Positions 903 through 63,117 of a DNA stretch of 64,000 nucleotides are shown piece after piece. Made by a program: the position numbers and the translations under genes. Under the pieces are notes generated by a model. It saw only the letters and a program-made list of their open reading frames with translations, searched no databases and was not told the origin of the DNA. The stretch covers positions 75,350 to 139,349 of the forward strand of contig CAWKAS010000003.1 of assembly GCA_963847655.1 (NCBI GenBank), given 5' to 3'. Each line of letters opens with the position of its first letter. The first letter of the stretch is position 1. This stretch comes from an uncultured Acidobacteriota bacterium (GTDB lineage Bacteria > Acidobacteriota > Vicinamibacteria > Fen-336).

Positions 903-1001
903 CGTGTGTGTGCGGCGGCGGTCGGCCACCCGGCTGCGGGCCCGTGAGCTTCGAAGTGCAGCAGGGTCCTCGCCGGGTCCCGGCCGCCGCCGCCTCGACG
1001 G
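903..1001. repeat. Solo, inverted copy of the core of the 145-bp repeat family arrayed at 10223-10703
   Basis: ggtcggccacccggctgcgggcccgtgagcttcgaagtgcagcagggtcctcgccgggtcccggccgccgccgcctcgacg is the reverse complement of a unit junction of the array. About 85 bp align with about 4 differences by eye. It lies in the intergenic gap between 867 and 1104. Confidence 0.75.
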
Positions 1002-1103
1002 GTCGCAGCCTTCTCCGCGGCCGCGGGCCGGTCTGTGATCCTGCTCTCGCATCCGTGCGGTGGTAGGCTCGTGCCGGGGGGCTGGTTCCTGCTGGAGGTG
1101 CTG

Positions 1104-12472: not shown

Positions 12473-12494
12473 TGCGCCGACCCGGAGAGCGGGG

Positions 12495-21184: not shown

Positions 21185-21238
21185 CGAATCCCCGCCCGCC
21201 GACCCGATTCACACCGTGAGAAGTAGAATGGGGCCGCG

Positions 21239-22432
21239 ATGACCACCCCTGCAGCGCCCCCCCCGATCCCCCGCGTCCCCTCGATCGACGCGTTCCGCGG
21301 CCTCGTGATGTTCCTGATGCTCGCCGAGGTGATGCGCCTGTGGACGCTCCACGACGCGTTCCCCTCGAGCGGCTTCTGGGCACTCGTCGCCTACAACACC
21401 ACCCACGTGCCGTGGCAGGGGTGCTCGCTCCACGACCTCATCCAGCCCGCCTTCTCGTTCCTGGCGGGAGCGTCGCTCCCCTTCTCGATCGCGAGCCGGA
21501 AGCTGAAGGGGCAGACGTTCGGGCAGATGCTGGGCCACGCGGTCCGCCGGAGCCTCATCCTCATCTTCCTCGGGATCTTCCTGCGTTCGATGCACAGCCC
21601 CCGCACGAACTGGACGTTCGAGGACACGCTGACCCAGATCGGCCTCGGCTACACCTTCCTCTTCCTCGTCGCGTTCGCGTCGCGGCGTCTCCAGGTGGGC
21701 GTCTTCGTCGCCATTCTCGTTGGCTTCTGGGCGGCGTTCGTCCTCTACCCGCTGCCCCCCGCCACCTTCGACTACCCCAGAGTAGGCGTCCCCGCGGACT
21801 GGCCCCACCTCTACTCGGGCTTCCTCGCCCACTTCAACATGAACTCGAACGTCTCGTGGGCCTTCGACACCTGGTTCCTCAACCTCTTCCCCCGCCAGTC
21901 GCCGTTCCTCTTCAACGGAGGGGGATGGTCTACGCTGAGCTTCGTTCCCACCCTCGCCACGATGATGCTGGGCATGTGGGCGGGGGCGTGGCTCAAGACC
22001 TCTCGCCCCCCCGCGGAAAAGCTCAAGGGGCTCGTGGCGTCCGGCGTCGCCCTCACCCTCGCCGGCCTCGTCCTCCAGTGGCTCCACGTCTGCCCGATCG
22101 TGAAGCGCATCTGGACCTCGTCCTACACCCTCTACAGCGGCGGGCTCATCCTGCTCATTCTCGCGGGCTTCTACGCGGCGATGGATCTGCGGGGCTGGAA
22201 GCGCTGGGCCTTCCCCCTCATCGTCATCGGCGCCAACTCGATCGCGATCTACGTGATGAGCTGGACGATGGAGCGCTTCGTGGCGGAGAGCCTCTCCATC
22301 CACCTCGGGACGGCCCCCTTTCTGCTGCTCGGGCCCCCCTTCGAGCCCGTGCTCCACGGGATCGGCGTCCTGCTCGTCTTCTGGTGGATCCTCCTCTGGA
22401 TGTACCGGAAGAAGATCTTCATCAAGATCTGA
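21239..22432 (+). CDS. Membrane acyltransferase-like protein (DUF5009/DUF1624, heparan-alpha-glucosaminide N-acetyltransferase-like)
   Basis: RVPSIDAFRGLVMFLM is the N-terminal signature, followed by about 10-11 TM segments. A TAGAAT hexamer lies 9 nt upstream of the ATG. Confidence 0.75.
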   Translation: MTTPAAPPPIPRVPSIDAFRGLVMFLMLAEVMRLWTLHDAFPSSGFWALVAYNTTHVPWQGCSLHDLIQPAFSFLAGASLPFSIASRKLKGQTFGQMLGHAVRRSLILIFLGIFLRSMHSPRTNWTFEDTLTQIGLGYTFLFLVAFASRRLQVGVFVAILVGFWAAFVLYPLPPATFDYPRVGVPADWPHLYSGFLAHFNMNSNVSWAFDTWFLNLFPRQSPFLFNGGGWSTLSFVPTLATMMLGMWAGAWLKTSRPPAEKLKGLVASGVALTLAGLVLQWLHVCPIVKRIWTSSYTLYSGGLILLILAGFYAAMDLRGWKRWAFPLIVIGANSIAIYVMSWTMERFVAESLSIHLGTAPFLLLGPPFEPVLHGIGVLLVFWWILLWMYRKKIFIKI

Positions 22433-39401: not shown

Positions 39402-40787
39402 CTACCCGATCTCGTAGCGCTTCATCTTGCGCCAGAGGGTGTTGCGAGAGACGCCCAGGTCCCCGGCCGCCTTCGTGCGGTTCCCCCCGTGGCGGTCGAG
39501 GGCCTCGCGAATGGCGACGGCCTCGGCGTTCTGCAGGGGCCCGAGACCTTCCCTTTCGGCCCCCGGCTCCGCGGCCTGCGCCGCCGGGGTGACGCGCTGA
39601 CCCAGCACGTGGGGCGGGAGGTCCTCGCGCTCGATGACGTTGCCCCCGCAGACCACGAAGGCGTGCTCGATGGCGTTCTCGAGCTCGCGCACGTTCCCGG
39701 GGTAGTCGTAGTGCATCAGGGCCGCCATCGCCCGCTCGGAGACCCCGGTGATGCGCCTTCCCTGGCTGGCATTGAACCTCTTGATGAAGTGGTCGACCAG
39801 GAGAGGGACGTCCTCGAGCCGTGCCCGCAGGGGGGGAAGGTTGACTCGGATCACGTTGAGACGAAAGAACAGGTCCTGGCGAAATCGCCCGTGCCCCACC
39901 TCCGCCGCCAGGTCCTTGTTGGTGGCGGCGAGGATGCGGACGTCGGCCTTCTCGGAGCGGACGGCCCCGAGAGGCGTGTACTCCCGCTCCTGGAGGACGC
40001 GGAGGAGCTTGACCTGCATCGCCGGTGAGATCTCCGCGATCTCGTCGAGGAAGAGCGTGCCTCCTTCGGCGAGAGCGAAGCGGCCAGGCTTGTCGCGACG
40101 CGCGTCGGTGAAGGCCCCCTTCCGGTAGCCGAACAGCTCCGACTCCGCCAGGCTGTCGGGCAGGGCCCCGCAGTTGACGGCCACGAACGGCCTGTCCCGG
40201 CGGGCTCCCAGGTTGTGGATGGCCCGGGCCACCAGCTCCTTCCCGGTGCCCTGCTCCCCCTCGATGAGGGCGGTGCTGCTCGAGCGGGCCACGAGGCGGA
40301 CCAGCTCCCGGACCCCCTGCATCCCCGGGCTCTTGGTGACGATGTCGTCGCTCGTGTAGCTGCCGTGGATCTGGCGGCGCAGCTCGGCCAGCATGGACAG
40401 GTCGCGGAACATCTCCACCCCGCCCACCACCCGGCCCTCGCGGTCCTCCAGGTGAGCGGTGCTCACGGAGACCAGGACCTCGCGACCGTCCCGGGTGCGG
40501 ATCGTCACCTCCTCGTCGCGGTGCTCCTCTCCCCCGGCGATGCTCTTCCGAAGGAAGCAGGTGTGCTCGCAGTGCGTGGCCCGGAAGACCCGGGCGCAGA
40601 GGCTGCCGATCACCTCGTCGCGGCTCCATCCCGTGATCCGCTCGGCCGCGCGGTTGAAGGAGGTGATCAGGCCCTGCTGGTCGACGGTGAAGATGCCGTC
40701 CGGGATGTTGTCGAAGATGATCGACCCGATGCGGGGGTCGAGGTGGCTCGGCATTGGGCGCTGCTCCTGTTCCATTGTACCCCCCAT
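39402..40787 (-). CDS. Sigma-54-dependent transcriptional activator (bEBP) with an N-terminal Cys-containing PAS domain and no receiver domain
   Basis: PAS region (FDNIPDGIFTVDQQGLITSFNRAAERITGW). AAA+ domain with GEQGTGKE, ESELFGYRKGAFTDA (a GAFTGA variant) and GTLFLDEI. C-terminal Fis-type HTH (AAGDLGVSRNTLWRKMK). The start is at 40787 or 40775. Confidence 0.92.
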   Translation of the reverse strand: MGGTMEQEQRPMPSHLDPRIGSIIFDNIPDGIFTVDQQGLITSFNRAAERITGWSRDEVIGSLCARVFRATHCEHTCFLRKSIAGGEEHRDEEVTIRTRDGREVLVSVSTAHLEDREGRVVGGVEMFRDLSMLAELRRQIHGSYTSDDIVTKSPGMQGVRELVRLVARSSSTALIEGEQGTGKELVARAIHNLGARRDRPFVAVNCGALPDSLAESELFGYRKGAFTDARRDKPGRFALAEGGTLFLDEIAEISPAMQVKLLRVLQEREYTPLGAVRSEKADVRILAATNKDLAAEVGHGRFRQDLFFRLNVIRVNLPPLRARLEDVPLLVDHFIKRFNASQGRRITGVSERAMAALMHYDYPGNVRELENAIEHAFVVCGGNVIEREDLPPHVLGQRVTPAAQAAEPGAEREGLGPLQNAEAVAIREALDRHGGNRTKAAGDLGVSRNTLWRKMKRYEIG

Positions 40788-40882
40788 CAGTAACGAAAAT
40801 GGAACGGTGCGTGTCACGATCGTCTCGTTTCTGGGGCAGCATCGACTCCATGGATCGAGATCCCGCGACCCCGAAACGCCTC

Positions 40883-40895
40883 TAAGTTGTTGATA
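40883..40895. promoter_or_regulatory. IHF-like binding site (matches WATCAANNNNTTR on the minus strand)
   Basis: taagttgttgata has the reverse complement TATCAACAACTTA. It is A/T-rich and lies about 30 nt upstream of the -24 element. Confidence 0.35.
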
Positions 40896-40924
40896 GGTGG
40901 ATTCTTCTCCGATCAGCTGTGCGC

Positions 40925-40940
40925 GGGCACGTTTCTCGCC
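40925..40940 (+). promoter_or_regulatory. Candidate sigma-54 (-24/-12) promoter of the redox-module operon
   Basis: gGGCACgtttcTCGCc compared with the consensus TGGCAC-N5-TTGC. The GG and GC dinucleotides have the canonical 12-nt register. It lies about 52 nt upstream of the ATG at 40992 and faces away from the divergent bEBP gene. Confidence 0.5.
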
Positions 40941-40991
40941 TGGGTCATGTTCGCCGCCCGGCGCGGCCCGCAAGGAGGGAGACCCCGCAAC

Positions 40992-42395
40992 ATGGCGATC
41001 GAATGCTCCTACTACCTGGAGGATCTGGACACCCGAGAGCTCCCCCGCCGGTTCCTCGAGGCGTTCGCGGCCATCCTGTCGCACTCGAACTACGCCCCCC
41101 TGCTCGACGCCGCCTCCCGGGTGGGCCTGCGATGCAGCCGCTGCGCGGTCACCTGCCCGGTCTACCAGGCGAGCGGGGACCGTCGGGACATCCCGTGCGA
41201 CCGCTCGGCGCTTCTCCTCGACGTCTACCGGCGGTACTTCACACTCCGGGGCAACCTGGGCGCCCGGTTCGGGAAGTCGTTCGTCCTGACCGAGGCGCAC
41301 ATCAACCGGATGGCCGAAGAGTTCTACCGCTGTACCGCGTGCCGGCGCTGCAAGAAGGAGTGCCCGGTCGGGATCGATCACGCGCTCATCACCCGCCTCG
41401 GACGCTGGATCCTGGCCGAGATCGGGATCACCCCCAAGGCCCTGGTTGTGGCCACCCGAGAGCAGCTCGAGGGAAAGACGCACAACACCTCGGCCATCCC
41501 CGCCGCGGCCATGAAGGACACGTGCGAGTTCCTCGAGGAGGACTGTGCCGACGAGCATGGTCTGAAGATCGAGTTCCCCGTCGACGTCTCCGGGGCGGAG
41601 TACGTGTTCTTCCCCGCGGTGAGCGACTACCTCCTCGAGCCCGACACCCTCATGGGCAACGCCGCGGTGATGAAGGCCACCGGCGGCTCCTGGACCATCG
41701 GGAGCCAGAACTTCGACGGCATCAACTACGGGCTCTTCTACAGCGACCGGATGCTCGGCCGGATCGTCTCCGCGGAGGTCGACGAGGTCCGGCGCCTGAA
41801 GGGGAAGAAGATCCTCATCGGGGAGTGCGGCCACGCGTCGCGCTCGGCGAAGGCCTTCGTCCCCACCTTCGGCGGGCAGGACCCGCCTCCGGTCGTCAAC
41901 ATCATGGAGTACACCTACGACCAGTGGAAGGCCGGGAAGCTGAAGCTCAAGCCCGGTGTCATCAAGGAACGGGTCACCTACCACGACCCGTGCAACATCG
42001 CCCGCAGCGGCTGGATCACCGAGCAGCCTCGCGAGATCCTCAAGCACATCTGCGCCGACTTCGTGGAGATGACCCCCAACCGCCGGGACAACTACTGCTG
42101 CGGCGGGGGCGGGGGAACGGTCTCGATCGACGAGATCCGGAAGTTCCGGACCACCGTCGGGGGCAAGACCAAGGCCGACCAGATCCGGGCCACCGGCGCC
42201 GCGATCTGCGTGGCCCCCTGCGCCAACTGCAAGAAGCAGGTCGCCGAGGTCTGCGAGGACAACGACCTCGACGTGCGCGTGTGCGGCCTGCACGACCTTA
42301 TCCTGAAGGCCATCGACGCGCCGGACTTCATGAAGACGAACGGGGACGGTCCCGACCCGGCCGGCGCCCCCCCCGCACCCACGGAGGACGCCTGA
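40992..42395 (+). CDS. HdrD/DsrK/HmcF-like iron-sulfur protein (2x[4Fe-4S] ferredoxin motifs plus a CCG domain)
   Basis: AAGGAGG at 40972-40978 precedes the ATG. CSRCAVTCP and CTACRRCKKECP cluster motifs. A full CCG domain C-x34-CCG-x38-CxxC (HDPCNIAR...NYCCGGGGG...CVAPCANC). Confidence 0.88.
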   Translation: MAIECSYYLEDLDTRELPRRFLEAFAAILSHSNYAPLLDAASRVGLRCSRCAVTCPVYQASGDRRDIPCDRSALLLDVYRRYFTLRGNLGARFGKSFVLTEAHINRMAEEFYRCTACRRCKKECPVGIDHALITRLGRWILAEIGITPKALVVATREQLEGKTHNTSAIPAAAMKDTCEFLEEDCADEHGLKIEFPVDVSGAEYVFFPAVSDYLLEPDTLMGNAAVMKATGGSWTIGSQNFDGINYGLFYSDRMLGRIVSAEVDEVRRLKGKKILIGECGHASRSAKAFVPTFGGQDPPPVVNIMEYTYDQWKAGKLKLKPGVIKERVTYHDPCNIARSGWITEQPREILKHICADFVEMTPNRRDNYCCGGGGGTVSIDEIRKFRTTVGGKTKADQIRATGAAICVAPCANCKKQVAEVCEDNDLDVRVCGLHDLILKAIDAPDFMKTNGDGPDPAGAPPAPTEDA

Positions 42396-43090
42396 TGGAC
42401 ACCTGGATCGCACTGGCCAGCGGCCCGCTCTTCCGCGTGGCCCTCGCCGCCTGCCTGCTCGGGCTCGCCTACCACCTCGGCAACACGCTCTGGATGCTCG
42501 TCCAGTCCCATCGAAGGTCCACCGACAAGGAGCTCGCCCTGGGGACCGTCTTCGGCGCGACCCTCCGCAGCCTCCTGCCCCTGCGGCACCGTCGGCCGAT
42601 CCAGACCCTCGCCGGGGTGGCCTTCCACGCCGGAATCCTCCTGGTGCCCCTCTTCTACGTCGGCCACGTGACCCTCTGGCAGCCGCACCTCCGCATCCCC
42701 TGGCCCACCCTGGGACCGGCGGCCTCGGACGTCCTGACCCTCGCCGCTGTGGCCGGGCTGGCCGCCCTGCTCCTCTGGCGGCTGCTCGTGCGGACGAGCC
42801 GGGAGCTGACCGCCGCCGCGGACGTCGCCGTCCTCCTGCTCCTCCTCGCCGTCACCGCCAGCGGCTACTGGGCGGCCCACCCCGCCTCCTCGCCGGCCGC
42901 CCCGCGGGCCATGCTGCTGGTCCACGTTCTTTCCGCGAACCTGGCTCTCTTCCTCACCCCGCTCACCAAGATCGTCCACTGCGTCCTGGCTCCCCTCAAC
43001 CAGCTCGTGAGCGAGGTGGCGTGGCACTTCCCGGCCGAGAGCGGTGCCCACGTGGCCCTCGCCCTGGGCAAGGAGAACGACCCGGTATGA
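42395..43090 (+). CDS. NarI/DsrM/HmcE-like membrane dihaem cytochrome b
   Basis: TGATG start/stop overlap with GGAGGA upstream. Five hydrophobic helices. Four conserved-looking His residues (AFHAG, YVGH, LLVHV, KIVH) fit two b haems. Confidence 0.8.
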   Translation: MDTWIALASGPLFRVALAACLLGLAYHLGNTLWMLVQSHRRSTDKELALGTVFGATLRSLLPLRHRRPIQTLAGVAFHAGILLVPLFYVGHVTLWQPHLRIPWPTLGPAASDVLTLAAVAGLAALLLWRLLVRTSRELTAAADVAVLLLLLAVTASGYWAAHPASSPAAPRAMLLVHVLSANLALFLTPLTKIVHCVLAPLNQLVSEVAWHFPAESGAHVALALGKENDPV

Positions 43091-43908
43091 GCACGAACAC
43101 CGCACGCACCCGCTCCTTCGCGATCCTGACCGACGTCACCCTCTGCATCGGCTGCGAGGAATGCGTCGCCGCGTGCAAGAAGACCAACGACACCGGCGAG
43201 GACGACGCCCCCTGGAAGTGGCAGGGGGGGGCCGAAGACCTCAGCTCCACCCGGTGGACGACGATCGCGCGCACCCGTGGCCGGTACGTTCGGGTCCAGT
43301 GCCGCCACTGCCTGGACCCCGCCTGCGCCGCCGCCTGCCCGGTGGCCGCGCTCTACACCACCGAGTCCGGTGCGGTAGCCTACAACCCCGACATCTGCAT
43401 GGGGTGCCGCTACTGCATGGTGGCGTGCCCGTTCCGCATGACCCGGTACGAGTGGGACTCCCCGATCCCCCGGGTCCGCAAGTGCATCCTCTGCTACCAG
43501 GCTCTCACCAGCGGTGAGCTCAGCCAGCCCGCGTGCACCGCCGCCTGCCCCACGAAGGCCACGATCTTCGGGACGCGGGACGCGCTCCTGGCCGAGGCCC
43601 GCCGCCGCATCGAGGCCGCCCCCGACCGCTACGTCCACCACATCTGGGGCGAGCACGAGGTCGGGGGCACGTCCGTGCTCTACATCTCCGACGTCGAGCT
43701 CACCGCCGCGGCCTGGCCCGAGGGGCTTCCCGGCCACCCGGTGCCCGAGCTCGCCACGGACGTCCTGAGCACCGTGCCCGCCACCTTCCTGACCGTGGGC
43801 GCGGCGATGGCCGGGTTCCACTGGATCGTGGGGAGGAGGGACAAGCTGGCGGCCGAGGCGGCCACCCCCCCGCCCCCCGAGGCCTCCGACGACGAGGTGA
43901 GCTCGTGA
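43087..43908 (+). CDS. HybA/DsrO/HmcB/PsrB-like four-cluster ferredoxin subunit with a C-terminal TM helix and no recognisable signal peptide
   Basis: ATGA overlap with the previous gene. CIGCEECVAAC, CRHCLDPACAAACP, CMGCRYCMVACP and CILC...CTAACP. C-terminal helix TVPATFLTVGAAMAGFHWIVG followed by RRDK. Confidence 0.88.
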   Translation: MSTNTARTRSFAILTDVTLCIGCEECVAACKKTNDTGEDDAPWKWQGGAEDLSSTRWTTIARTRGRYVRVQCRHCLDPACAAACPVAALYTTESGAVAYNPDICMGCRYCMVACPFRMTRYEWDSPIPRVRKCILCYQALTSGELSQPACTAACPTKATIFGTRDALLAEARRRIEAAPDRYVHHIWGEHEVGGTSVLYISDVELTAAAWPEGLPGHPVPELATDVLSTVPATFLTVGAAMAGFHWIVGRRDKLAAEAATPPPPEASDDEVSS

Positions 43909-45929
43909 CGCCCGCCCAGAACCCCCGCCTGATCGTGACCAAGGCCGTCCTCTGGTTCCTCGTCGGCGTGGCCGCGGTGGTGGCCGTGGTGCGCTTCGCC
44001 CTCGGGCTCGGCCTCACCACCGACCTGACCGACGCGACCCCGTGGGGCATGTGGGTCGGCTTCGACGTCCTGGGCGGGGTGGCCCTGGCCGCCGGCGGCT
44101 TCGTGGTCGCCGCCACCGTCTACATCTTCCGGCGCGAGCGCTACCACGTCATCATCCGGCCCGCCATCCTCACCGCCTTCCTCGGCTACCTGGCGGTGAT
44201 CATCGGCCTGATGGTCGACCTCGGCCGGCCCTGGAACATCTGGCGCCCGATGTTCCACTGGAACCTGCACTCGCCGTTGTTCGAGGTGGCGATGTGCGTG
44301 ATTCTCTACACCACGGTGCTCGCCCTGGAGTTCGCGCCGGTGGTCCTCGAGCGCTTCGCCTGGGCGGTGCCCGCGATCCGCCTCCTGCGGCGGGTGACGC
44401 TGCCCCTGGTCGTGGTGGGCATCGCGCTGTCGACGCTGCACCAGTCGTCGCTCGGCACCCTGTTCCTCCTCTCCGGGGCGCGGATGCACCCGCTGTGGTT
44501 CTCTCCCCTCCTGCCCCTGCTCTTCCTCGTCTCGGCGGTGGGACTGGGCCTCGGGATGGTCACCGTGGAGAGCCTGGTGACCTCCTGGCTCTACCGGCGG
44601 GAGGCGGAGTGGGACCTCCTCCGCGGCCTCGCGCGCGCCGCCACCGTGGTCCTCTCCTTCTACCTCCTCGTCCGCCTGGGAGACCTGGCGTGGCGGGGCG
44701 AGATCGGGCGGGCCTTCGACGGCTCGTGGTTCGCCGTCCTCTTCTGGGTGGAGATGGGGATGAGCACCCTCGCCCCGGTGGCTCTCTTCCTTCGTGCCCG
44801 CCGGGGCGACGGGCGGTGGGCCATCACCTGGGGCGCGTTCCTCATGACCGCCGGCTTCGTCCTCCACCGGGCCGACGTCGGCGGCATCTCCCACATCGCG
44901 GTGACCGGACAGGTCTACGTCCCCGCCGCCACCGAGGTCGCGGTGAGCCTGGGCATCGTCTCCGGGCTGGCGCTCATCTTCCTGTTCTTCGTGGAGAACC
45001 TGAAGGTCTGGGAGGAGCCCCCCCCGGCGACCGACCACTTCACCCCCGCCGCCACGGACCCCGTGAGCTCCCAGTACATCGGCTCGCCGTGGCTCGGAGG
45101 GGGACAGCGCGCCGCCCTCGCGCTCATCTGCGGGGTGGTCGTGGGCCTCGCCCTCGTCGAGGCCCAGGTCGAGAGGCGGCGGCCGAGCGCGGCCCGCCCC
45201 ATCCACCCCCCCCGCAGCGCCGCGGCCCTGGTCACCCCCGGGGCGGACGGGAAGGGGCACGTCTTCGAGGTCGTCTCCCCGACGGCGCCGGAGGCGATGA
45301 CGGAGGCCGTCGCCCGGGGCGGCGTCCTCCAGGACGCCCTCCTGATCGACAGCGGGGGCGAGGGGCGCCTCGTCCTGTTCCCTCACGCCGCCCACCAGCG
45401 CCGGCTCGGGGGCGAGGCCTCGTGCGCCACGTGCCACCACCGCAACGTCCCCCTGGACCGGGCGACCTCCTGCTCCCACTGCCACCGCGACATGTACCGA
45501 CCGACCGACACCTTCGACCACGCCCGGCACGTGGTCGCCCTCGACCAGAGCCTCTCGTGCACGGTGTGTCACCGGGACCGAGAGGCCGCACGGACCCGCG
45601 CCGGGTCCCGGCCCTGCGCCAGCTGCCACCAGGGGACGCCGTCCCACCTGACGCGGGTGCGGGTCACCGGCGAGGCCGAGCCGGGCCTCGCCCCCGGCTA
45701 CGAGAAGGCGATGCACGGGCTGTGTCTGGGCTGCCACCGCGAGGAGGAGAGGGACCTCGCGGTCGCCGACCGCTCCCTGAGCCGCTGCACGAACTGCCAC
45801 CGCGGTGAGTTCGCCTCCGACGCCGCCATGCGCCAGCGGCCGCCGTTCGCGGTCGTCGCCACCGCCGCCCCCGCGGCCCCGGGCGCGGTGACGAACGGGA
45901 CCGGCAGCACCACGGGGGGATCACCGTGA
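43905..45929 (+). CDS. NrfD/PsrC/DsrP/HmcC-like polytopic membrane subunit fused to a C-terminal multihaem cytochrome c domain (6 CXXCH)
   Basis: GTGA overlap with the previous gene. An NrfD-like core of about 430 aa (WGMWVGFDVLGG..., LHQSSLG...) and one extra TM segment (AALALICGVVVGLALV). Then FPHAAHQ...CATCH, CSHCH, CTVCH, CASCH, CLGCH and CTNCH. Confidence 0.88.
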   Translation: MTPAQNPRLIVTKAVLWFLVGVAAVVAVVRFALGLGLTTDLTDATPWGMWVGFDVLGGVALAAGGFVVAATVYIFRRERYHVIIRPAILTAFLGYLAVIIGLMVDLGRPWNIWRPMFHWNLHSPLFEVAMCVILYTTVLALEFAPVVLERFAWAVPAIRLLRRVTLPLVVVGIALSTLHQSSLGTLFLLSGARMHPLWFSPLLPLLFLVSAVGLGLGMVTVESLVTSWLYRREAEWDLLRGLARAATVVLSFYLLVRLGDLAWRGEIGRAFDGSWFAVLFWVEMGMSTLAPVALFLRARRGDGRWAITWGAFLMTAGFVLHRADVGGISHIAVTGQVYVPAATEVAVSLGIVSGLALIFLFFVENLKVWEEPPPATDHFTPAATDPVSSQYIGSPWLGGGQRAALALICGVVVGLALVEAQVERRRPSAARPIHPPRSAAALVTPGADGKGHVFEVVSPTAPEAMTEAVARGGVLQDALLIDSGGEGRLVLFPHAAHQRRLGGEASCATCHHRNVPLDRATSCSHCHRDMYRPTDTFDHARHVVALDQSLSCTVCHRDREAARTRAGSRPCASCHQGTPSHLTRVRVTGEAEPGLAPGYEKAMHGLCLGCHREEERDLAVADRSLSRCTNCHRGEFASDAAMRQRPPFAVVATAAPAAPGAVTNGTGSTTGGSP

Positions 45930-47764
45930 GCGGCCCGTGCTGGCCCGTCTCCCGGGCCCAGGAGCTCTTCGAGGAGATGCCCTCGGGGATCATGGTCATG
46001 GATCGCGAGTTCAGGATCGTGGACCACAACCGGGCGTTCGTGGACGTCTACGGTCCGAACGTCGGGACCCCCTGCTACCAGGTCTACAAGGATCGCGGGA
46101 CCCCGTGCCCCGACTGCCCGGCCCAGGCGACGTTCGAGGACGGGCGGCCCCGGGTCCTCGAGGAGACCGGGCTCGACCGCAACGGCCAGACGATCCACTA
46201 CCTGGCCCGCGTGGTGCCGCTGCGCGACGAGACCGGGGGGATCACCCACGTGGCGGCGATCACCACCGACCTGACCGCGACGAAGAGGCTGCAGCGCGAG
46301 TACCAGACCCTGTTCGAGAAGGTGCCGTGCTACGTGGCGGTGCTGAACCAGGACCGCCGGGTCATCAAGGCCAACGAGATGTTCCGGCGGACCTTCGGGG
46401 AGCCCCGGGGCGACTTCTGCTACAAGCTGTTCAAGGGGCGCCGCACCGAGTGCGAGGACTGCCCGGCGGACAAGACCTTCGTGGACGGCCGCTCCCACAC
46501 CTCCCGGCACGTCGGACAGAACCGCGACGGGGGCGAGACGCACTACGTGGTGTCCACCGCGCCCCTCCTCCAGGGAGACGGGGAGACCACCCACGTCATC
46601 GAGATGGCCCTCGACATCACCGAGATGACCGCGCTCGAGACCCAGCTCCAGAACGCCCACGTCTTCCGCCAGGCCCTGGTCGAGAACTCCCTCGAGGCCG
46701 TCGTGGTCATCGACGAGTCCCAGCGGGTGGTGCTGATGAACAAGGCGGCGGAGGATCTCTGGGGCGCCCGCCGCGAAAGCCTGGTCGGCCACAAGGCCCC
46801 GCGGGCCCTGGTCCCGGCCGCCCTGCGGCGCCAGCGCGCGCACACCGGCGCGACCGTCCTGCTCCCCGACACCACGATCACGAACCTGGCCGGCGAGACC
46901 ATCCCGGTGGAGCTCGCGGGCATGACCATCTTCAGCGAGGGTCGCTACCTGGGCGGCGCGGTCAAGGCCCTCGACCTGAGGGCCACGAAGGAGCTCGAGC
47001 GCGAGAAGCTCACCGCCGAGCGGCTGGCCGCCGTGGGTCAGACGGTGGCGGGGCTGGCGCACGGCATCAAGAACGTGCTCATGGGCCTCGAGGGCGGCAT
47101 GTACGCGTTCCAGAGCGGCATGAAGAAGGGCGACGACGCGCGAATGCTCCAGGGCTGGCAGATGCTCGAGGAGAACATCAACCGGATCACCACATTCGTG
47201 AAGGAGTTCCTCGAGTTCGCCCGGGGCCGGACCCCGACGGTGCACCTCATCGATCCCAACGAGGTGGCGGGAAAGGTCGTGGACCTCTTCAAGGACAAGG
47301 CGGAGCAGGCGGGCATCCGACTGGGCTTCGAGCCCCAGGCCGGGATCCCCCCGGCCTTCATGGACGAGGAGGGGATCCACACCTGCCTCGTCAACCTGGT
47401 CTCGAACGCCCTCGACGCCTGCGAGACCTCGGAGAGGGCGGACCCCGAGGTGGTCGTGCGCACCCGCGACCACGCCGGGGCGCTTCTGCTGGAGGTGGCG
47501 GACACCGGCACCGGGATCGACTCCGAGATCCGCAAGAAGGTCTTCACGACCTTCTTCAGCACCAAGGGCTCGGGCAAGGGGACCGGTCTCGGCCTGCTCA
47601 CCACCCGGAAGATCGTCCAGCAGCACGGCGGCAAGGTGTGGTTCGAGTCGACGCCGGGCACCGGCTCCGTCTTCCGGCTGGAGTTCCCCCACGATCGGCT
47701 GCCCCACCCGCGCGAGACGGAAGACGCCCTTTCAAGCACAGGAGACGAGGATGGCACGGCCTGA
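45926..47764 (+). CDS. Cytoplasmic multi-PAS sensor histidine kinase; two PAS domains carry C-x10-C-x2-C motifs
   Basis: GTGA overlap with the cytochrome gene. No TM segment. Three PAS-like modules. H-box AGLAHGIKNVL. N, G1 and G2 boxes (LVSNALDA, DTGTGID, GKGTGLGL). Confidence 0.9.
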   Translation: MSGPCWPVSRAQELFEEMPSGIMVMDREFRIVDHNRAFVDVYGPNVGTPCYQVYKDRGTPCPDCPAQATFEDGRPRVLEETGLDRNGQTIHYLARVVPLRDETGGITHVAAITTDLTATKRLQREYQTLFEKVPCYVAVLNQDRRVIKANEMFRRTFGEPRGDFCYKLFKGRRTECEDCPADKTFVDGRSHTSRHVGQNRDGGETHYVVSTAPLLQGDGETTHVIEMALDITEMTALETQLQNAHVFRQALVENSLEAVVVIDESQRVVLMNKAAEDLWGARRESLVGHKAPRALVPAALRRQRAHTGATVLLPDTTITNLAGETIPVELAGMTIFSEGRYLGGAVKALDLRATKELEREKLTAERLAAVGQTVAGLAHGIKNVLMGLEGGMYAFQSGMKKGDDARMLQGWQMLEENINRITTFVKEFLEFARGRTPTVHLIDPNEVAGKVVDLFKDKAEQAGIRLGFEPQAGIPPAFMDEEGIHTCLVNLVSNALDACETSERADPEVVVRTRDHAGALLLEVADTGTGIDSEIRKKVFTTFFSTKGSGKGTGLGLLTTRKIVQQHGGKVWFESTPGTGSVFRLEFPHDRLPHPRETEDALSSTGDEDGTA

Positions 47765-48299
47765 GGACAAGACCATTCTGGTCGTGGACGACGAGCCCAA
47801 CGTCCGCGACTACCTGAAGATGATCCTGGTGGACGCCGGGTTCCGGGTGGCGACCGCGGCCGATGGGGAGGAGGCTCTCGCGCGCATCCGCGAGAGCCGT
47901 CCCGACTTCATCTCCCTCGACCTGATCATGCCCCGCAAGTCGGGGCACAAGCTGCTCCTCGAGCTCAAGCGGGACCGCGACCTGAGCCGCATCCCGGTCC
48001 TGGTGGTGACCGCTCACGCCCACGACGAGTTCGGCAGCAAGGACCTCGAGGAGATCCTGGACGGCGCGGTGATGTCGGGACCGGGGACCTACCTCGAGAA
48101 GCCGATCAACCCCGAGTCGTACGTCCGGGCGATCTCGCGTGCGGTGGGGGTCGAGCCCGCGCCGCGGAGCACCCCCCGGACCGACCTCAAGGAAGAGCTG
48201 GAGCACAGCATCCAGGGCGCGAGCCCCGAGGCCCTGCGCGAGGCCCTCGCGGCCCTGCGCCGGGCGAAGACGAAAGGAGCGCACAAAGGTGACGGATAG
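47751..48299 (+). CDS. Stand-alone response-regulator receiver protein with a C-terminal tail of about 60 aa
   Basis: ILVVDDEP...FISLDLIMPRKSG...PVLVVTAH...EKP. It overlaps the kinase gene by 14 nt. Confidence 0.88.
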   Translation: MARPEDKTILVVDDEPNVRDYLKMILVDAGFRVATAADGEEALARIRESRPDFISLDLIMPRKSGHKLLLELKRDRDLSRIPVLVVTAHAHDEFGSKDLEEILDGAVMSGPGTYLEKPINPESYVRAISRAVGVEPAPRSTPRTDLKEELEHSIQGASPEALREALAALRRAKTKGAHKGDG

Positions 48300-48717
48300 A
48301 GGCGATCGGCAGACGGTCCTGGTCGTGGACGACGAGCCCCACGTGGTGGCCTACCTGGAGATGCTCCTCCAGGACCAGGGCTACGCGACGGTGTCGGCGG
48401 CCAACGGCCGCGAGGGGATGGAGAAGGCAAAGGCGCACACGCCCGACCTCATCTGCCTGGACATCACCATGCCCGAGGAGTCGGGGGTCCGTATGTACCG
48501 CAACCTGAAGGAGGACCCGCGTCTGGCGAGCATCCCGGTACTGGTGGTGACCGCGGTCACGGGCCTCGGAGGCGACCCGGAGCCCTTCCGGCACTTCCTG
48601 GACACCCGGAAGAGCGTCCCCGCGCCCGAGGGCTTCTTCTCCAAGCCCATCGAGCGCGAGCAGTTTCTGGCGAAGGTCGACGAGATCCTGGCGAAGCCTG
48701 TCGCGCCGTCCTCCTGA
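48289..48717 (+). CDS. Stand-alone response-regulator receiver protein
   Basis: The GTG start overlaps the previous gene by 11 nt. VLVVDDEP...LICLDITMPEESG...PVLVVTAV...SKP. Confidence 0.85.
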   Translation: MTDRGDRQTVLVVDDEPHVVAYLEMLLQDQGYATVSAANGREGMEKAKAHTPDLICLDITMPEESGVRMYRNLKEDPRLASIPVLVVTAVTGLGGDPEPFRHFLDTRKSVPAPEGFFSKPIEREQFLAKVDEILAKPVAPSS

Positions 48718-58444: not shown

Positions 58445-58918
58445 TCAACGCGACCGGCGCCACCGCCGCCCGCCGGATTCGGGCTCCTCGTCCTCCTCCG
58501 CGGACGGCTGCGCCAGCACATCCAGGTAGGCGAGGAGGGCGGTGATCTCGGACTCGGCCAACGTGCGTCCCCACGGGGGGCACAGGGCCGAGCGACCGAG
58601 AGCGACCGTTCCCCCCTCGATCACCCGCCGCCGGTCGTCGGGGGGCATCTCCCCCAGCGACTCCCGGAAGTCGGGGGGCGGGGGCTGGAGGTTGAAGGCG
58701 TTCTGCCCGTCGCCACGTCCCTCGGGCCCGTGGCAGGTCGCGCAACGCTGGACGAAGACGCGACGCCCCTCGGCCTCGCGTGTGCTCAGCTCCCCCTCGC
58801 GGAAGGCCTCCTGCACGGCGTTGACGGGCGGGTCCTTCGGGGCCGGTCGGCAGCCAACGGCGAGGGCGAGCAAGAGGCCGGCGACGGCGGCCCCCCGACC
58901 CTTCGACGGACGTCTCAC
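58445..58918 (-). CDS. Monohaem class-I c-type cytochrome lipoprotein with Cys at the expected sixth-ligand position
   Basis: GTGA overlap with the upstream gene. LLLALAVGC lipobox and CATCH haem site. ALCPPWG occurs where class-I cytochromes usually have MPxWG or MPxFG. Confidence 0.8.
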   Translation of the reverse strand: MRRPSKGRGAAVAGLLLALAVGCRPAPKDPPVNAVQEAFREGELSTREAEGRRVFVQRCATCHGPEGRGDGQNAFNLQPPPPDFRESLGEMPPDDRRRVIEGGTVALGRSALCPPWGRTLAESEITALLAYLDVLAQPSAEEDEEPESGGRRWRRSR

Positions 58919-60909
58919 GGGACCGCCCTCCCCTGGCGGGCGGGGATGCTGAGGGTGTAGGCGGTGAGGGCCTCGGCCTCCTCGCGGCTCAGGCCATGGT
59001 CCGGTTGCAGGGTGCCGGGCTTCCACCGTTCCGGGTCCAGGAGCCACTCGACCGTCCACCCCGGTTGGAGGCGCGCCCCGCTGCCGTTGAGGTCCGGCCC
59101 CACGAAGCCGCCGCCGTCCCCCACGATGTGGCACCCCTGGCACCCGTGACGGTCGAACAGCTCGCGGCCCCGGGCCACCGTGGCTGCGTCCGTGGGGACG
59201 CTCGCGTGCAGGGCATCGTCGACCATGACCCTCGAGAGGTAGTCGGCGAGGACGCGCGCCTCGTCCGGGGCGATGTTCAGGTGCGGCATCCGCTCCGCGA
59301 GACCCACCCGCACCGCGATCGGCTTCTGGACGTACTGCTCGATGTAGTCCCGCTGCAGCTGGCTCCCGATCCGATCCAGGACCACCGTCGAGAGGGTCCC
59401 GCCGGTTCCCTGGATCTGGTGACACGAGAGACACCGGTACCGGCGCACCAGCGCCCCGAACTCCCCCTGCGGCTCGTAGAGCGGCCGCTCCGGGTCCCGT
59501 GTGGCGTGGTCCGGGGGCACGGGATCGCGCCGCAGGCTCAGGAGGGCCACCGCCACCGCCGCCGCCTCGTGCTCGGTGAAGCCGAAGGTCGGCATACGGG
59601 CGGTGTCGAGCACCCGCTCCGGCCTGCTCACCTTGGTGAAGAGCCAGTTCGGCAGCGTGGGCTCGACCCCTCGCGCCACGAGCGGTGTCGGGTCGAGGAT
59701 GAGGTCCCCCACCCCCGCGAGCTTCGGACCGATGCGCGGGCGCTCCGGGAAGCCCTCCAGGCCGTGACAGGAGTAGCATCCGCGGCGCTCGTAGATCCGC
59801 CGTCCCTCCGCGGCCAGGGTCGGGGAGGGAGGGGCATCCTGGGCGGCCAGCCCCTTCGGCTCTCCGAGCTCCTCCGAGAGATAGGCGGCGAGATCGCGGA
59901 CCTCGTCGCCGGTGAAGCGGAAACGGGGCATGAGCGTGTCCGGCTGCAGCCGGTGGGGGTCCCGGATCCAGGAGTAGAGCCAGTCCCGCGAGGCCTTGGC
60001 CCCCACGTGCCCGAGCTCGGGTGCCAGCGTGCCGCCGCGACCGTTCACCGAGTGGCAGGTCACGCAGCGGGCGGCGCGGAACAGCTCTCCCCCGCGCTCC
60101 GCGTCCGCCTCTCCCCATTCCACCGCCTCGTGCACGGCGGCCCCGTGGGGCTCGAGCAGGAACGCGGTCAACGCCTCGACCTCGTCCGGCTTCAGGCGGA
60201 AGTTGCCCATGCGCGAGCGGTCGAGGTACTCGCGCGGATCGGCGAGCCAGCCGCGGAGCCAGGCCGGGGAGACCTTCTGCGACAGGCCGTCCAGACGCGG
60301 AGCGCGCACCTCGGACTCGAGGTGTCCCGGCACCTCGTGGCAGGCCACGCAGTTCCGGTCGCTCATGAGGGCCCGCCCGCGCGCCAGCCAGTAGGTGTCC
60401 GGGGGCCGGCGCTCCTGGTGACAGGCACCGCAGCGTGCCTCCATCAGCTCCCGCGAGGCCATGGGCTCGGGCCAGAACGGCAACGGCTCGTGAGCGGCGT
60501 GCCGGTAGTCCGTGGCCTCCCCCTGCCCTCCGTGGCACGAGGTGCAGCCGAAGCGGTCGGGACGGTGGGTGTCGAGCCAGCTCCCGCTGTGCGTGCGGAA
60601 GGGCTGAGACGACCCCACCCTCGCCGGATCCGCGATCCCGAGGTGGCAGCTCGTGCAGCGGTCGACCCGGTCCAGGTCCTTCAGCCAGATCTGCTGGAGT
60701 CCCGTCTCGGCCTCCGCGCCCTCCAGCGCCGCGAAGCGCGACTGCCACTGCCGCCATTCCGCCCGGCTCTCCTTCAGCACCGCGCCCACCACCACCACCA
60801 CCAGCGCGAGCGAGAGGAGGCCGAAGGCCCACAGCAGCCCGACCGGAACGCGGCGCGACAGCCCCCGCCGCCGGGGCCCTTCGCCGCGACCGGGCGTCAC
60901 GACGCCCAC
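58915..60909 (-). CDS. Membrane-anchored octahaem c-type cytochrome (3 N-terminal haems plus 5 class-I-like modules)
   Basis: N-terminal TM segment [55 protein letters not shown] and CQGCH. Five repeats of an M(P/G)xF...E(v/a).AL.AYL module. Confidence 0.88.
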
Positions 60910-62048
60910 GGCCAGACCCAGGCCCAGTTGGGACCACGGAAGAAGGTCCCGACGATCGTCAGCGCGACCACGGCCAGGGCCAGGAGCCCGAACACCACGT
61001 TGGCCCTGCGTCGCTCACGCGCAAACCAGACCCCCACCCCGCCTCCCCGGTGGTCCACGTAGGGCAGCGCGAGCAGGCCGAGGATCATGGCCGTGGGGAT
61101 CACGACCCCGCCGAACAGGGCCCCGTAGTGGACGAGCTCCTGCAGGCCCAGGAAGTACCAGGGAGCCTTGGCCGGGTTCGGGGTCCGGGCCGCGTCGGCG
61201 ATCTCCTCGAGGGGCGCGTCGACGAGGAGCGCGGCGGCGTGAACGACGACGACCACGAGGAGCAGGACCACCAGCTCGCGGAACAGCAGGTGAGGCCAGG
61301 TCGGGGCCCGGCGCATCGGGCCCGGAGGAGCGGCGAGCCCCCCATCCTTGCGCACCCGCCAGAAGTGCAGGCTGATGAGGAAGCCCATCGCCAGGGGCAG
61401 GACGAGGCAGTGGAGGACGTAGAAGCGGAGCAGCGCCGCCTGCCCGATCTCGTGGCCGCCGAGGAGCAGGTAGCGCACCCGCTCCCCCACGAAGGGAAAG
61501 TAGGCCGCGATGCTGGTGCCGACGGTGATGGCCCAGAACGCGAGCTGGTCCCACGGAAGAAGGTACCCGGTGAAGGACAAGGCGAGGGTCAGGAGAAGAA
61601 GGACGACCCCCACCACCCAGTTGAACTCGCGAGGACGCTTGTACGATCCCGTGAAGAAGACCCGGCACATGTGAAGGAAGACGACCGCCACCATTCCGTG
61701 GGCGGCCCAGCGGTGGGCGTTGCGCAGGAACATCCCGAAGGTCACCGCGAACTGGATGTCCTTCATGCTCCGGTAGGCGGCCTCGGTGTGGGGGACGTAG
61801 TAGAGCATCAGGGCCAGACCGGTGACGGTCAGGATCCCGAACAGGTAGAAGCTGATCAGCCCCAGACCCAGGGTGGACTTGAACCTCAGGGCGTGGACGC
61901 GCACCCGTGTGGGGTGGACGTGCAGCACGAGGCTGGAGAGCAGGGTGGCCAGGCGCTGCTGCCGCGTGCGCGGCCACCCGATGCGGAAGACGGAGCGGTA
62001 GACGCGGCGCCAGGTCCGATGCAGCCGCTCCCGGGCGTCGTCGCTCAT
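60897..62048 (-). CDS. Cytochrome b (unsplit b6 plus subunit-IV-like) of a Rieske/cyt b complex
   Basis: Haem ligands H112/H126 (H-x13-H) and H213/H228 (H-x14-H). [10 protein letters not shown]. The Qo-site motif reads APWY (61155-61166). ATGA overlap with the Rieske gene. Confidence 0.9.
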
Positions 62049-62500
62049 GCGAGGAGTCGGAAGTCCGCGTCGACCTTCCGCAGGGTGTCCACGATCAGCT
62101 CGCCCCGCCGCGAGAGGCTCATCTCGTAGCGCGGCAGGGGCCAGGCCGCGGGTCCTCGCGTCACGTTACCGGCCTTGTCGTAGAGACTGCCGTGGCAGGG
62201 GCAGACGAAGCCATGCCCTTCGTCGTGGTTGACGTTGCAGCCCAGATGGGTGCAGACCGCCGAGATGGCGTGGAAGCCCTCGGCTCCGCGAAACACGAAC
62301 ACGCGGTGGTCAGCGAGGAGGGTCACGCTGTTCGGGGGGTACTCCTCGGGTCGACCGATGGAAAACCGCCGGGGCGCCTCGTAGAGGACGTCCGGCACCA
62401 CCGAGCGGGCCAGGGCCACGAGGAGACCCAGGCTCCCGGCGGCGAGACCGGTCGTTCCCACGGCAAGAACGAAGCGGCGGCGTGAGGGTCGGCCGTTCAT
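62045..62500 (-). CDS. Rieske [2Fe-2S] subunit with a Tat signal
   Basis: [22 protein letters not shown] (twin-arginine). CTHLGC...CPCHGS boxes. Confidence 0.92.
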
Positions 62501-63117
62501 TCCTCGATGACGAGGTCGAGGTCCAGAACCTGTCCCGCCTCCACCGTGACCTCCTTCTCGAGTCCGTCCTTCTTCTCGTGCCACGCCCACAGCAGGTACT
62601 CGCCAGGGGGGACGCCCCTGACCTCGAACCGGCCCTCGGAATCGGTCACCGCGAAGTAGGGGGTCGGGAGGATCACCACGTAGGCCAGCATGTCGGGATG
62701 GATGTTGCACAGCTGGGTGTAGACGCCCGGCTTCTCGAAGGTGTGGTCGCGGGTCTCGCCCGTGGGCCAGGTCCCGAGGTTGTAGCGCCCCTCGGGCGAA
62801 TACACGTTGTGGGGCTCGGGATCGTTGTTGAGAAAGCGCACGGTCGACCCCACCGGGAGCACGGTGATGTGGGGGACGAACCGGAAGCCCTTCTGGTCGA
62901 TCTTCACCGGCTCCGGAGGCGGGGCGTACTCGAGGTTTGGGGCCTCGATGCTGATGACCGCGTCCTTGCTCGACTTCTGGCCCTTCACGACGACCGTACC
63001 CCGCACCGTGGCGGTCTCGGCCGCCTCGACTCCGCCGACGGCCACGGTGAGAGCGATCAGCATGGCGAGGTGTCTCACGGGGTCCCGGCTCTCCCGGCTG
63101 CGGCGTGGCGAGGACAT
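62497..63117 (-). CDS. Exported type-1 (blue) copper cupredoxin fused to a CarboxypepD_reg-like beta-sandwich domain
   Basis: Signal ...[19 protein letters not shown]. Cu ligands His (EPHNV) and C-x2-H-x2-M (CNIHPDM, 62689-62709), as in amicyanin-type sites. ATGA overlap with the Rieske gene. Alternative starts are at 63078 (GTG) and 63063. Confidence 0.8.

Follow-up and report, generated by a model that had tools for sequence, protein, structure and literature searches.

What does a self-contained set of membrane redox genes do in a region where no enzyme for it to serve is evident? The question arises from a 64,000-nucleotide stretch of an uncultured Acidobacteriota bacterium (GenBank assembly GCA_963847655.1, contig CAWKAS010000003.1, positions 75,350 to 139,349 of the forward strand), the whole of which we call the window. 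At 39402-48717 it holds seven plus-strand genes and a divergent activator gene, and our open reading frame (ORF) list places them, with every boundary, junction and overlap, exactly where a preliminary description made from the sequence alone had put them. That description saw a transmembrane redox module resembling Hdr, Dsr and Hmc complexes and no catalytic partner in the 64 kb; the latter holds for every callable gene, and the Pfam search that it had proposed confirmed all of its domain calls. We find that the four redox genes form a widely conserved cassette, and with moderate confidence we read it as an Hmc/Tmc-class conduit that would connect cytochromes of the periplasm and the quinone pool with a DsrC-type thiol/trisulfide in the cytoplasm.

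The genes are packed without gaps. The TGA of the CCG-domain gene and the ATG of the cytochrome b gene overlap by one base at 42395, an ATGA at 43087 joins the cytochrome b gene to the Fe-S gene, GTGA junctions follow at 43905 and 45926, and the last two junctions are overlaps of 14 nt (47751-47764) and 11 nt (48289-48299). A Shine-Dalgarno-like GGAGG or AGGAG stands 6-10 nt before every start codon of the operon, and a scan of its interior found no terminator-like site above chance level. Judged by the overlapping junctions, the lack of an internal terminator and the conserved gene order, the seven genes are one predicted operon beside a divergent sigma-54 activator, as had been proposed.

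The order CCG protein, cytochrome b, Fe-S protein and NrfD-cytochrome fusion is kept in ~60 loci from species-representative genomes, all of them metagenome-assembled genomes (MAGs), so the arrangement is not a product of chance. Hosts belong to Acidobacteriota, Gemmatimonadota, Longimicrobiales, Zixibacteria, Ignavibacteria, Planctomycetota, Eisenbacteria and others, covering at least six phyla. The closest relative of the window cassette is an Acidobacteriota locus, L014 (86%), and locus L002 carries a module of the same make-up at 55% identity between unrelated flanks.

Some loci depart from this pattern. Several cassette genes are split by apparent frameshifts in L001 and L014 (84-86% identity, long-read MAG contigs), which are probably assembly errors and not pseudogenes. 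A Longimicrobiales contig has two cassette copies in tandem (L060:1-8658), and on an Ignavibacteriaceae contig a second NrfD-cytochrome gene lies in inverted orientation (L025:12292-13686). Loci L057, L062-L064, L068, L071, L074, L079, L082, Geothrix L065 and L075 encode the Fe-S and NrfD proteins with no fusion, CCG protein or cytochrome b; a histidine kinase gene comes next, followed in most of them (not in Geothrix) by an NtrC-type receiver/sigma-54 activator, and most of their Fe-S proteins are also without a signal peptide. They appear to represent another module, one that resembles HybAB.

The CCG protein carries the full signature of the reductases DsrK, HmcF and TmcB, which share two [4Fe-4S] motifs, one CX_nCCGX_mCXXC motif and a Cys in T/GECGH (PMC10861901). 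In the window protein the two [4Fe-4S] motifs are C48/51/55/69 and C114/117/120/124, the GECGH residue is Cys279, and the single CCG motif (C334...C369C370G...C410xxC413) is predicted to hold a noncubane cluster. All 14 of these ligand or catalytic cysteines are invariant among 49 orthologues. Against NCBIfam models, for which we give scores as bits/cutoff, DsrK is the best match (272/400), with TmcB at 212/735 and HmcF at 210/750. Hydropathy predicts no transmembrane (TM) segment, and a sequence search of the PDB found no close solved homologue and one weak match, 9ojn. A neighbour-joining (NJ) tree, rough and without support values, sets the cassette proteins in a clade apart from true DsrK and from dsrM-adjacent DsrK-like paralogues.

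The next protein is a dihaem cytochrome b of the NarI/HmcE/DsrM type, with about five hydrophobic segments and the four conserved histidines of two haems b (His78/His91 and His177/His195), invariant in 56 orthologues. It scores 24.2 bits against Pfam Nitrate_red_gam (gathering score 22.9), and its best NCBIfam match is TmcC (89/240), with HmcE at 84/275.

The fourth redox protein is a fusion in which a 10-helix NrfD subunit of the HmcC/HybB class is followed by an eleventh TM helix (395-425), a beta-rich linker and a hexahaem c3-type domain. Hydropathy and an AlphaFold2 (AF2) model agree on the ten NrfD helices and the eleventh; eleven TM helices with the N-terminus inside put the haem domain in the periplasm. 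HmcC and HybB are 10-helix quinone-interacting NrfD proteins (PMC6303296), and the NrfD part falls in the same subfamily (HybB/HmcC/QrcD/DsrP/ActC): HybB is its top NCBIfam match (295/450), ahead of HmcC (267/550) and DsrP (25/350), and its best Foldseek matches are ActC/ActF of alternative complex III (probability 1.0), then PsrC. A PDB sequence search returned no close solved homologue of this part. The haem domain has six CXXCH motifs accompanied by six further histidines, all invariant in 18 sequences, which indicates bis-His ligation and agrees by sequence with class III cytochromes c3. Its PDB sequence matches are the nine-haem cytochrome c NhcA (best) and the basic/type II c3 2bq4, and it reaches 28/400 against HmcA. 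The AF2 model of this domain is of low confidence (pLDDT <50), so we kept it out of fold claims. More than 100 full-length relatives of the fusion, at 50-89% identity, have the identical two-domain architecture. Public databases name them 'Ni/Fe-hydrogenase cytochrome b subunit' or 'HybB-like', yet hydrogenase genes do not accompany them; this naming is probably a systematic misannotation.

The Fe-S subunit poses an export puzzle. Its 16 cysteines, enough for four [4Fe-4S] clusters, are invariant in 63 sequences, and its NCBIfam scores are 233/420 (HmcB), 198/263 (HybA) and 93/200 (DsrO). Of the two hallmarks of the tail-anchored HybA and HmcB proteins that depend on twin-arginine translocation (Tat), it has one, a C-terminal TM segment (226-244, followed by RRDK; hydropathy), and lacks the other: no core orthologue in ~60 loci has a signal peptide or Tat signal. 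The Chloroflexi relatives L067, L073 and L078, with a canonical Tat signal (MKLSRRDFLKL), served as positive control. The tail anchor and the predicted NrfD topology imply a periplasmic site for the subunit. A signal-less HybA-like/HybB-like pair is known to hitchhike on a Tat-signal [FeFe] hydrogenase (bioRxiv 10.1101/2023.11.02.564894); the window encodes no Tat-signal hydrogenase partner able to carry the Fe-S subunit.

That precedent lends itself to another explanation, in which the Fe-S and NrfD proteins would be the HybA/HybB-like anchor of a periplasmic hydrogenase or formate dehydrogenase (FDH) encoded elsewhere, whose Tat signal would also carry the signal-less Fe-S protein across the membrane. 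The public annotation as a hydrogenase cytochrome b subunit, the place of HybB and HybA at or near the top of the NCBIfam matches and the missing signal in all orthologues agree with such a role. Both Hyb scores fall under their cutoffs, however, no hydrogenase or FDH gene recurs near the cassette in 49 loci or stands in the window, and hydrogenase 2 (Hyd-2) contains neither a fused cytochrome nor a counterpart of the invariant CCG/cytochrome b pair. On the Hyb scores and the flanks of the 49 loci we largely rejected a hydrogenase membrane anchor, and we hold it to be highly improbable.

Which known complex, then, does the cassette resemble? Pfam, NCBIfam and the six CXXCH motifs bear out that its subunits are of the Hdr/Dsr/Hmc-like kind and that cytochrome and NrfD subunit are joined in one protein. 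Hmc has a multihaem c3-family cytochrome, the 4x[4Fe-4S] protein HmcB, the 10-helix HmcC, the dihaem b HmcE and the single-CCG HmcF. It differs in many respects. The window scores for HmcA, HmcB, HmcC, HmcE and HmcF are all below cutoff; the window cytochrome has 6 haems and is fused to the NrfD C-terminus, whereas HmcA has 16 and is separate; and the cassette lacks the small HmcD subunit, there being no extra small membrane ORF between the window genes because their junctions overlap. The genes run F-E-B-C::A where Hmc has A-B-C-D-E-F, a signal peptide is missing from the Fe-S subunit, the regulators are a sigma-54 enhancer-binding protein (EBP) and a PAS kinase in place of Rrf1/Rrf2, and the hosts are those listed above, not Desulfovibrionales. 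Regulators inside such an operon are themselves a likeness: the preliminary description had called the arrangement non-textbook on two counts, and the fused order stands, whereas embedded signalling genes are not unusual, since rrf1, which encodes a receiver, and rrf2 belong to the hmc operon of Desulfovibrio (bioRxiv 10.1101/2023.11.02.564894).

With Tmc the cassette shares the type of its CCG protein and cytochrome b, a c3-family partner and receivers whose best match is the DVU0259 family. TmcABCD has TmcD and no NrfD or HmcB-type subunit, and the window proteins stay under the TmcB and TmcC cutoffs. DsrMKJOP likewise consists of a cytochrome b + CCG module and a cytochrome c + Fe-S + NrfD module, and DsrK is the best match of the CCG protein; the DsrK, DsrO and DsrP scores are nevertheless below cutoff, DsrM (cutoff 300) and DsrJ (cutoff 100) gave no match at the NCBIfam equivalog models, and the window cytochrome is a bis-His hexahaem protein, in contrast to the triheme DsrJ with its His/Cys ligation. 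Hyd-2 HybA/HybB and NhcABCD have the Fe-S + 10-helix NrfD quinone module, with HybB the top NrfD match and NhcA the best PDB match, but neither has a cytochrome b or CCG subunit; the window has no hydrogenase, its cytochrome is fused, and the HybA and HybB scores miss their cutoffs. By sequence the cassette lies outside the equivalog level of Dsr, Hmc, Tmc and Hyb, yet clearly in their architectural class. Our literature search found no description of the fused cassette and no mention of Hmc or Tmc in the main Acidobacteriota and sulfate-reducer diversity papers; a study of acidobacterial sulfate reducers put NrfD homologues under DsrP, QrcD, 'HydB' and DmsC (PMC10564751).

Gene neighbourhoods connect the cassette to dsr genes. 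We clustered the flanking ORFs of 49 core loci and identified recurrent neighbours with NCBIfam and motif scans, a comparison that the preliminary description had suggested. Cassette order was conserved. Of 60 cassette loci, 18 had dsrAB, dsrC, dsrD, dsrL, dsrN or dsrMK no more than 10 kb away, and among the 27 cassette loci with near-full flanks the count was 12; a control set of 22 further loci with the Fe-S + NrfD pair only had none (Fisher p = 0.002). No major subclade of the CCG tree, the window's own included, is without linked loci. To the window's subclade belongs L007, an Acidobacteriota locus in which the cassette and its regulators sit within a dsr cluster in the order dsrM, dsrK-like, activator, cassette, histidine kinase, receiver, receiver, dsrA, dsrB, DsrL-like, DsrN-like; dsrA scores 563 bits (cutoff 393) and dsrB 510 bits (cutoff 341). 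There and in Gemmatimonadota loci the cassette stands beside separate dsrM/dsrK-like genes. A dsrC with the C-terminal KPTGCV motif is also among the cassette neighbours, as is dsrD in several linked clusters.

Locus L015 separates the cassette from DsrMKJOP itself. A true dsrMKJOP stands directly upstream and overlaps the cassette start, with all five genes above cutoff (M 504, K 730, J 126, O 295 and P 425 bits), which shows the cassette to encode a complex of its own alongside DsrMKJOP. This locus, with the separate CCG and DsrK clades, rules out a divergent DsrMKJOP; the preliminary description had left room for an ordinary dsrMKJOP locus, which the coexistence also contradicts.

The regulatory genes follow the linkage. 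A PAS kinase gene, accompanied by receiver genes, lies downstream of the cassette in 27 of 40 loci with enough DNA, and because 9 of the 13 loci without a kinase gene are embedded in dsr clusters, the data suggest that the cassette comes in two forms, one set within a dsr cluster and the other autonomous and with its own regulators, as in the window. The activator consists of PAS, AAA+ Sigma54_activat and HTH_8 domains; its input is a PAS and not a receiver domain, as first described, and a Cys triad in this PAS (C64/C73/C77, C-x8-C-x3-C) is invariant in 29 orthologues. Of the 46 loci whose upstream DNA is long enough, 29 carry such an activator gene before the cassette; 11 have it in the divergent orientation seen in the window, and 18 have it co-directional. 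The kinase has three PAS domains and HATPase_c, with no TM segment noted, and is predicted to be cytoplasmic. In 17 orthologues it keeps two C-x10-C-x2-C triads (C50/C61/C64 in PAS1, C165/C176/C179 in PAS2) and likewise C135 and H191. The Cys triads of these sensor domains suggest redox, O2 or metal sensing, and may bind an Fe-S cluster or a metal.

Transcription would start at a sigma-54 promoter under the divergent PAS-EBP. The candidate element, GGGCACGTTTCTCGCC, is a GG-N10-GC at -67, 53 nt before the CCG start codon, that fits 8 of 11 consensus positions. A search of the intergenic region with the strict sigma-54 consensus (<=2 mismatches) found none, so the promoter assignment is putative. 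Related Acidobacteriota-type loci have near-consensus boxes in the corresponding place, at -57 to -90, such as TGGCACGTTCCTTGCC at -64 in L002, and the boxes of L036 and L051 match at 11/11. Scores of >=9/11 were reached in 21% of upstream regions versus 3% of random segments.

The PAS kinase and two single-domain receivers, predicted to be co-transcribed, would make up a second regulatory layer. Receiver 1 joins a receiver domain to a ~55-aa tail without a recognised domain, and inspection of its translation finds the DD, D, T and K phospho-acceptor residues. The best NCBIfam match of both receivers is the DVU0259 family, at 76 bits for receiver 1, under cutoff, and 97 bits (cutoff 160) for receiver 2. 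In D. vulgaris, DVU0259 adjoins tmc; a literature search for DVU0259, DVU0258 and DVU0260 found nothing.

A Cys-rich Nitro_FeMo-Co gene (NifX/MrpORP-like) usually lies between a co-directional activator and the CCG gene, and is absent from the window. We saw it ~3.7 kb upstream of the fusion in L010, L013, L017-L019, L026-L028, L031, L037-L041, L044, L045 and L048, from Zixibacteria, Ignavibacteria and Gemmatimonadota.

From gene order, domains, ligand conservation, topology, the conservation of the cassette and dsr linkage in relatives, and by analogy with Tmc and Hmc (PMC4215793, PMC6303296) and DsrMK (PMC10861901), we propose a substrate, a direction of electron flow and a possible coupling to energy conservation for the Hmc/Tmc-class conduit. 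The hexahaem domain would exchange electrons with soluble or membrane cytochromes or with periplasmic dehydrogenases. From this helix-tethered domain electrons would pass to the four [4Fe-4S] clusters of the HmcB-like protein, in exchange with the quinone site of NrfD, and the HmcE/DsrM-like dihaem b would convey them across the membrane to the CCG protein. There the noncubane cluster and the GECGH cysteine would reduce (or, run in reverse, oxidise) a protein trisulfide or disulfide, most likely that of DsrC. The complex would so join a periplasmic reductant, the quinone pool or both to the final step of sulfite reduction, parallel to DsrMK(JOP). Tmc and Hmc have been proposed as electron carriers between periplasmic c3 and DsrC (PMC4215793).

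Several observations weigh against this proposal. No dsr gene was found in the 64-kb window, and the closest relatives with long flanks (L002, L005, L008, L011 and L014) have none within 10 kb; the neighbouring genes are those of a heterotroph that degrades glycans and has a bc-type complex; the -24/-12 element of the window is degenerate; and the Fe-S subunit, which lacks a Tat signal, would need an export partner to reach the periplasm.

Some of these points would suit a dsr-independent conduit between the quinone pool and the periplasmic cytochrome pool, for example the nearby bc-type complex or extracellular acceptors, comparable to Geobacter Cbc or Desulfovibrio Nhc/Qrc, with the CCG/cytochrome b pair serving another cytoplasmic thiol/disulfide or acting as an electron sink only. 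In Geobacter Cbc, a quinone-interacting membrane subunit works together with a periplasmic multihaem c domain or forms one protein with it, and some Cbc complexes are under sigma-54 control; the membrane part of CbcL is an FdnI/HydC-type b cytochrome, not NrfD, and Cbc is not known to have a CCG/HdrD-type cytoplasmic subunit or dsr linkage. The preliminary description had rated such a conduit as plausible as a thiol/disulfide link. Besides the dsr-free surroundings of the window cassette and its closest relatives, 42 of 60 loci have no dsr gene in the DNA available, a cluster of Rieske, cytochrome b and cytochrome c genes stands at a distance of 10 kb, and control by sigma-54 and PAS sensors resembles that of regulated respiratory branches. 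The NrfD + Fe-S pair is nearest to HybB/HybA and HmcC/HmcB, which are quinone reductases (PMC6303296). A pure conduit, however, would not need the catalytic residues of DsrK/HmcF/TmcB, every one of which is kept in 49 of 49 CCG orthologues; the dsr linkage is strong and phylogenetically spread; and the carriers partly overlap the dsrAB-holding lineages Acidobacteriota and Zixibacteria (PMC10591310). The linkage in 18 of 60 loci and the CCG signature support a DsrC-type link better, and a dsr-independent conduit is possible but unlikely.

The complex could also run backwards, passing electrons from DsrC-type thiols or another reductant to periplasmic cytochromes and on to O2 or other acceptors, in the service of sulfur oxidation, disproportionation or redox/oxygen defence. 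The direction of HmcC has been called uncertain (PMC6303296), and the linked dsr clusters hold a DsrL-like gene, DsrL being used both oxidatively and reductively (PMC8528874). The host context looks aerobic or facultative, and Cys-rich PAS sensors fit control by O2 or redox state. But several linked clusters include dsrD, a marker of reductive operation (PMC10591310), and we saw no dsrEFH or sox genes in the flanks of cassette loci. Sequence cannot reveal direction; on balance we doubt that reverse operation is the rule here.

The surroundings of the operon in the window bear out the glycoside hydrolases and the Rieske/cytochrome b chain first described. Upstream lie genes for a pyridoxal-phosphate-dependent (PALP) enzyme, SSF and nucleoside transporters, a Ser/Thr kinase-WD40 protein, a GH2 glycoside hydrolase, a CLC channel, a phosphoenolpyruvate carboxylase and an MFS transporter; downstream are genes for MscL, GFO/IDH/MocA, DUF2961, GH65, 3-keto-disaccharide hydrolase and fucosidase proteins. 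The bc-type respiratory cluster occupies 58915-62710 on the minus strand, ~10 kb from the cassette. Among the callable genes of the window we found no hydrogenase, formate dehydrogenase, molybdoenzyme or dsr gene; tblastn with DsrA, B, N, L, M and D representatives gave no matches to the window, and a scan of it for the DsrC C-terminal motif none. Our gene caller, based on GC content at third codon positions (GC3), overlooked several real genes and served only to choose long ORFs for Pfam.

Table 1. Features of the cassette operon, its divergent activator and the nearby bc-type cluster (positions in the window).
Feature	Coordinates	Strand	Evidence or remark
Divergent sigma-54 enhancer-binding activator	39402..40787	-	Pfam Sigma54_activat 223 bits, PAS 70, HTH_8 56
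Candidate sigma-54 -24/-12 element	40925..40940	+	GGGCACGTTTCTCGCC, GG-N10-GC
Cytoplasmic CCG-domain Fe-S protein, DsrK/HmcF/TmcB class	40992..42395	+	Pfam CCG 52 bits, Fer4_8 38 bits
NarI-type membrane dihaem cytochrome b, HmcE/TmcC class	42395..43090	+	Pfam Nitrate_red_gam
HmcB/HybA-type 4x[4Fe-4S] protein	43087..43908	+	Pfam Fer4_11 66 bits, 16 Cys
NrfD-type membrane subunit fused to hexahaem c3-type domain	43905..45929	+	Pfam NrfD 79 bits, Cytochrom_CIII 43 bits
Histidine kinase, three PAS	45926..47764	+	Pfam PAS_4 106 bits, HATPase_c 88 bits
Receiver-only response regulator 1	47751..48299	+	Pfam Response_reg 76 bits
Receiver-only response regulator 2	48289..48717	+	Pfam Response_reg 73 bits
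Rieske protein	62045-62710	-	bc-type cluster
Cytochrome b	60897-62048	-	Cytochrome_B 151 bits
664-aa cytochrome c, class I (cbb3/FixO-like) + c7/c3-like multihaem regions	58915-60909	-	

Elsewhere in the window, a 1617-aa protein at 12405-17261 (+) combines several WD40 beta-propellers with a Ser/Thr kinase domain at its N-terminus. Pfam returned no match at E <= 1e-5 for two long ORFs, 948-3212 (+; 754 aa) and 21227-22432 (+; 401 aa), whose GC3 bias is strong and of the coding type.

In such a setting the autonomous cassette might be a respiratory complex of its own, at work in Acidobacteriota that degrade glycans, are facultatively aerobic and have no dsrAB. It may then act as a redox-sensed bridge between the cytochrome/bc pool, the quinone pool and a thiol or persulfide carrier other than DsrC, its Fe-S subunit exported by a novel route or partner. 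We put this forward speculatively, as a rather unlikely case; if true, the autonomous complex would be a new family of energy-conserving membrane complexes outside the classical sulfur respirers.

Through metagenomics, sulfur metabolism based on dsrAB is now known from Acidobacteriota, Zixibacteria and other phyla, where the electron link to DsrC is inferred almost wholly from Desulfovibrio. The cassette is a conserved candidate for that link and could serve as a marker for Hmc/Tmc-like electron routing outside Desulfobacterota, and recognising it would correct what is probably a systematic misannotation. Two puzzles are concrete enough to be tested, the conserved lack of a Tat signal in the Fe-S subunit and the Cys triads of the PAS sensors. 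As a compact four-protein system with a fused cytochrome, the cassette would also offer a way into the cooperation of NrfD-type and HdrD-type subunits, a question that extends to DsrMKJOP, Hmc and Tmc.

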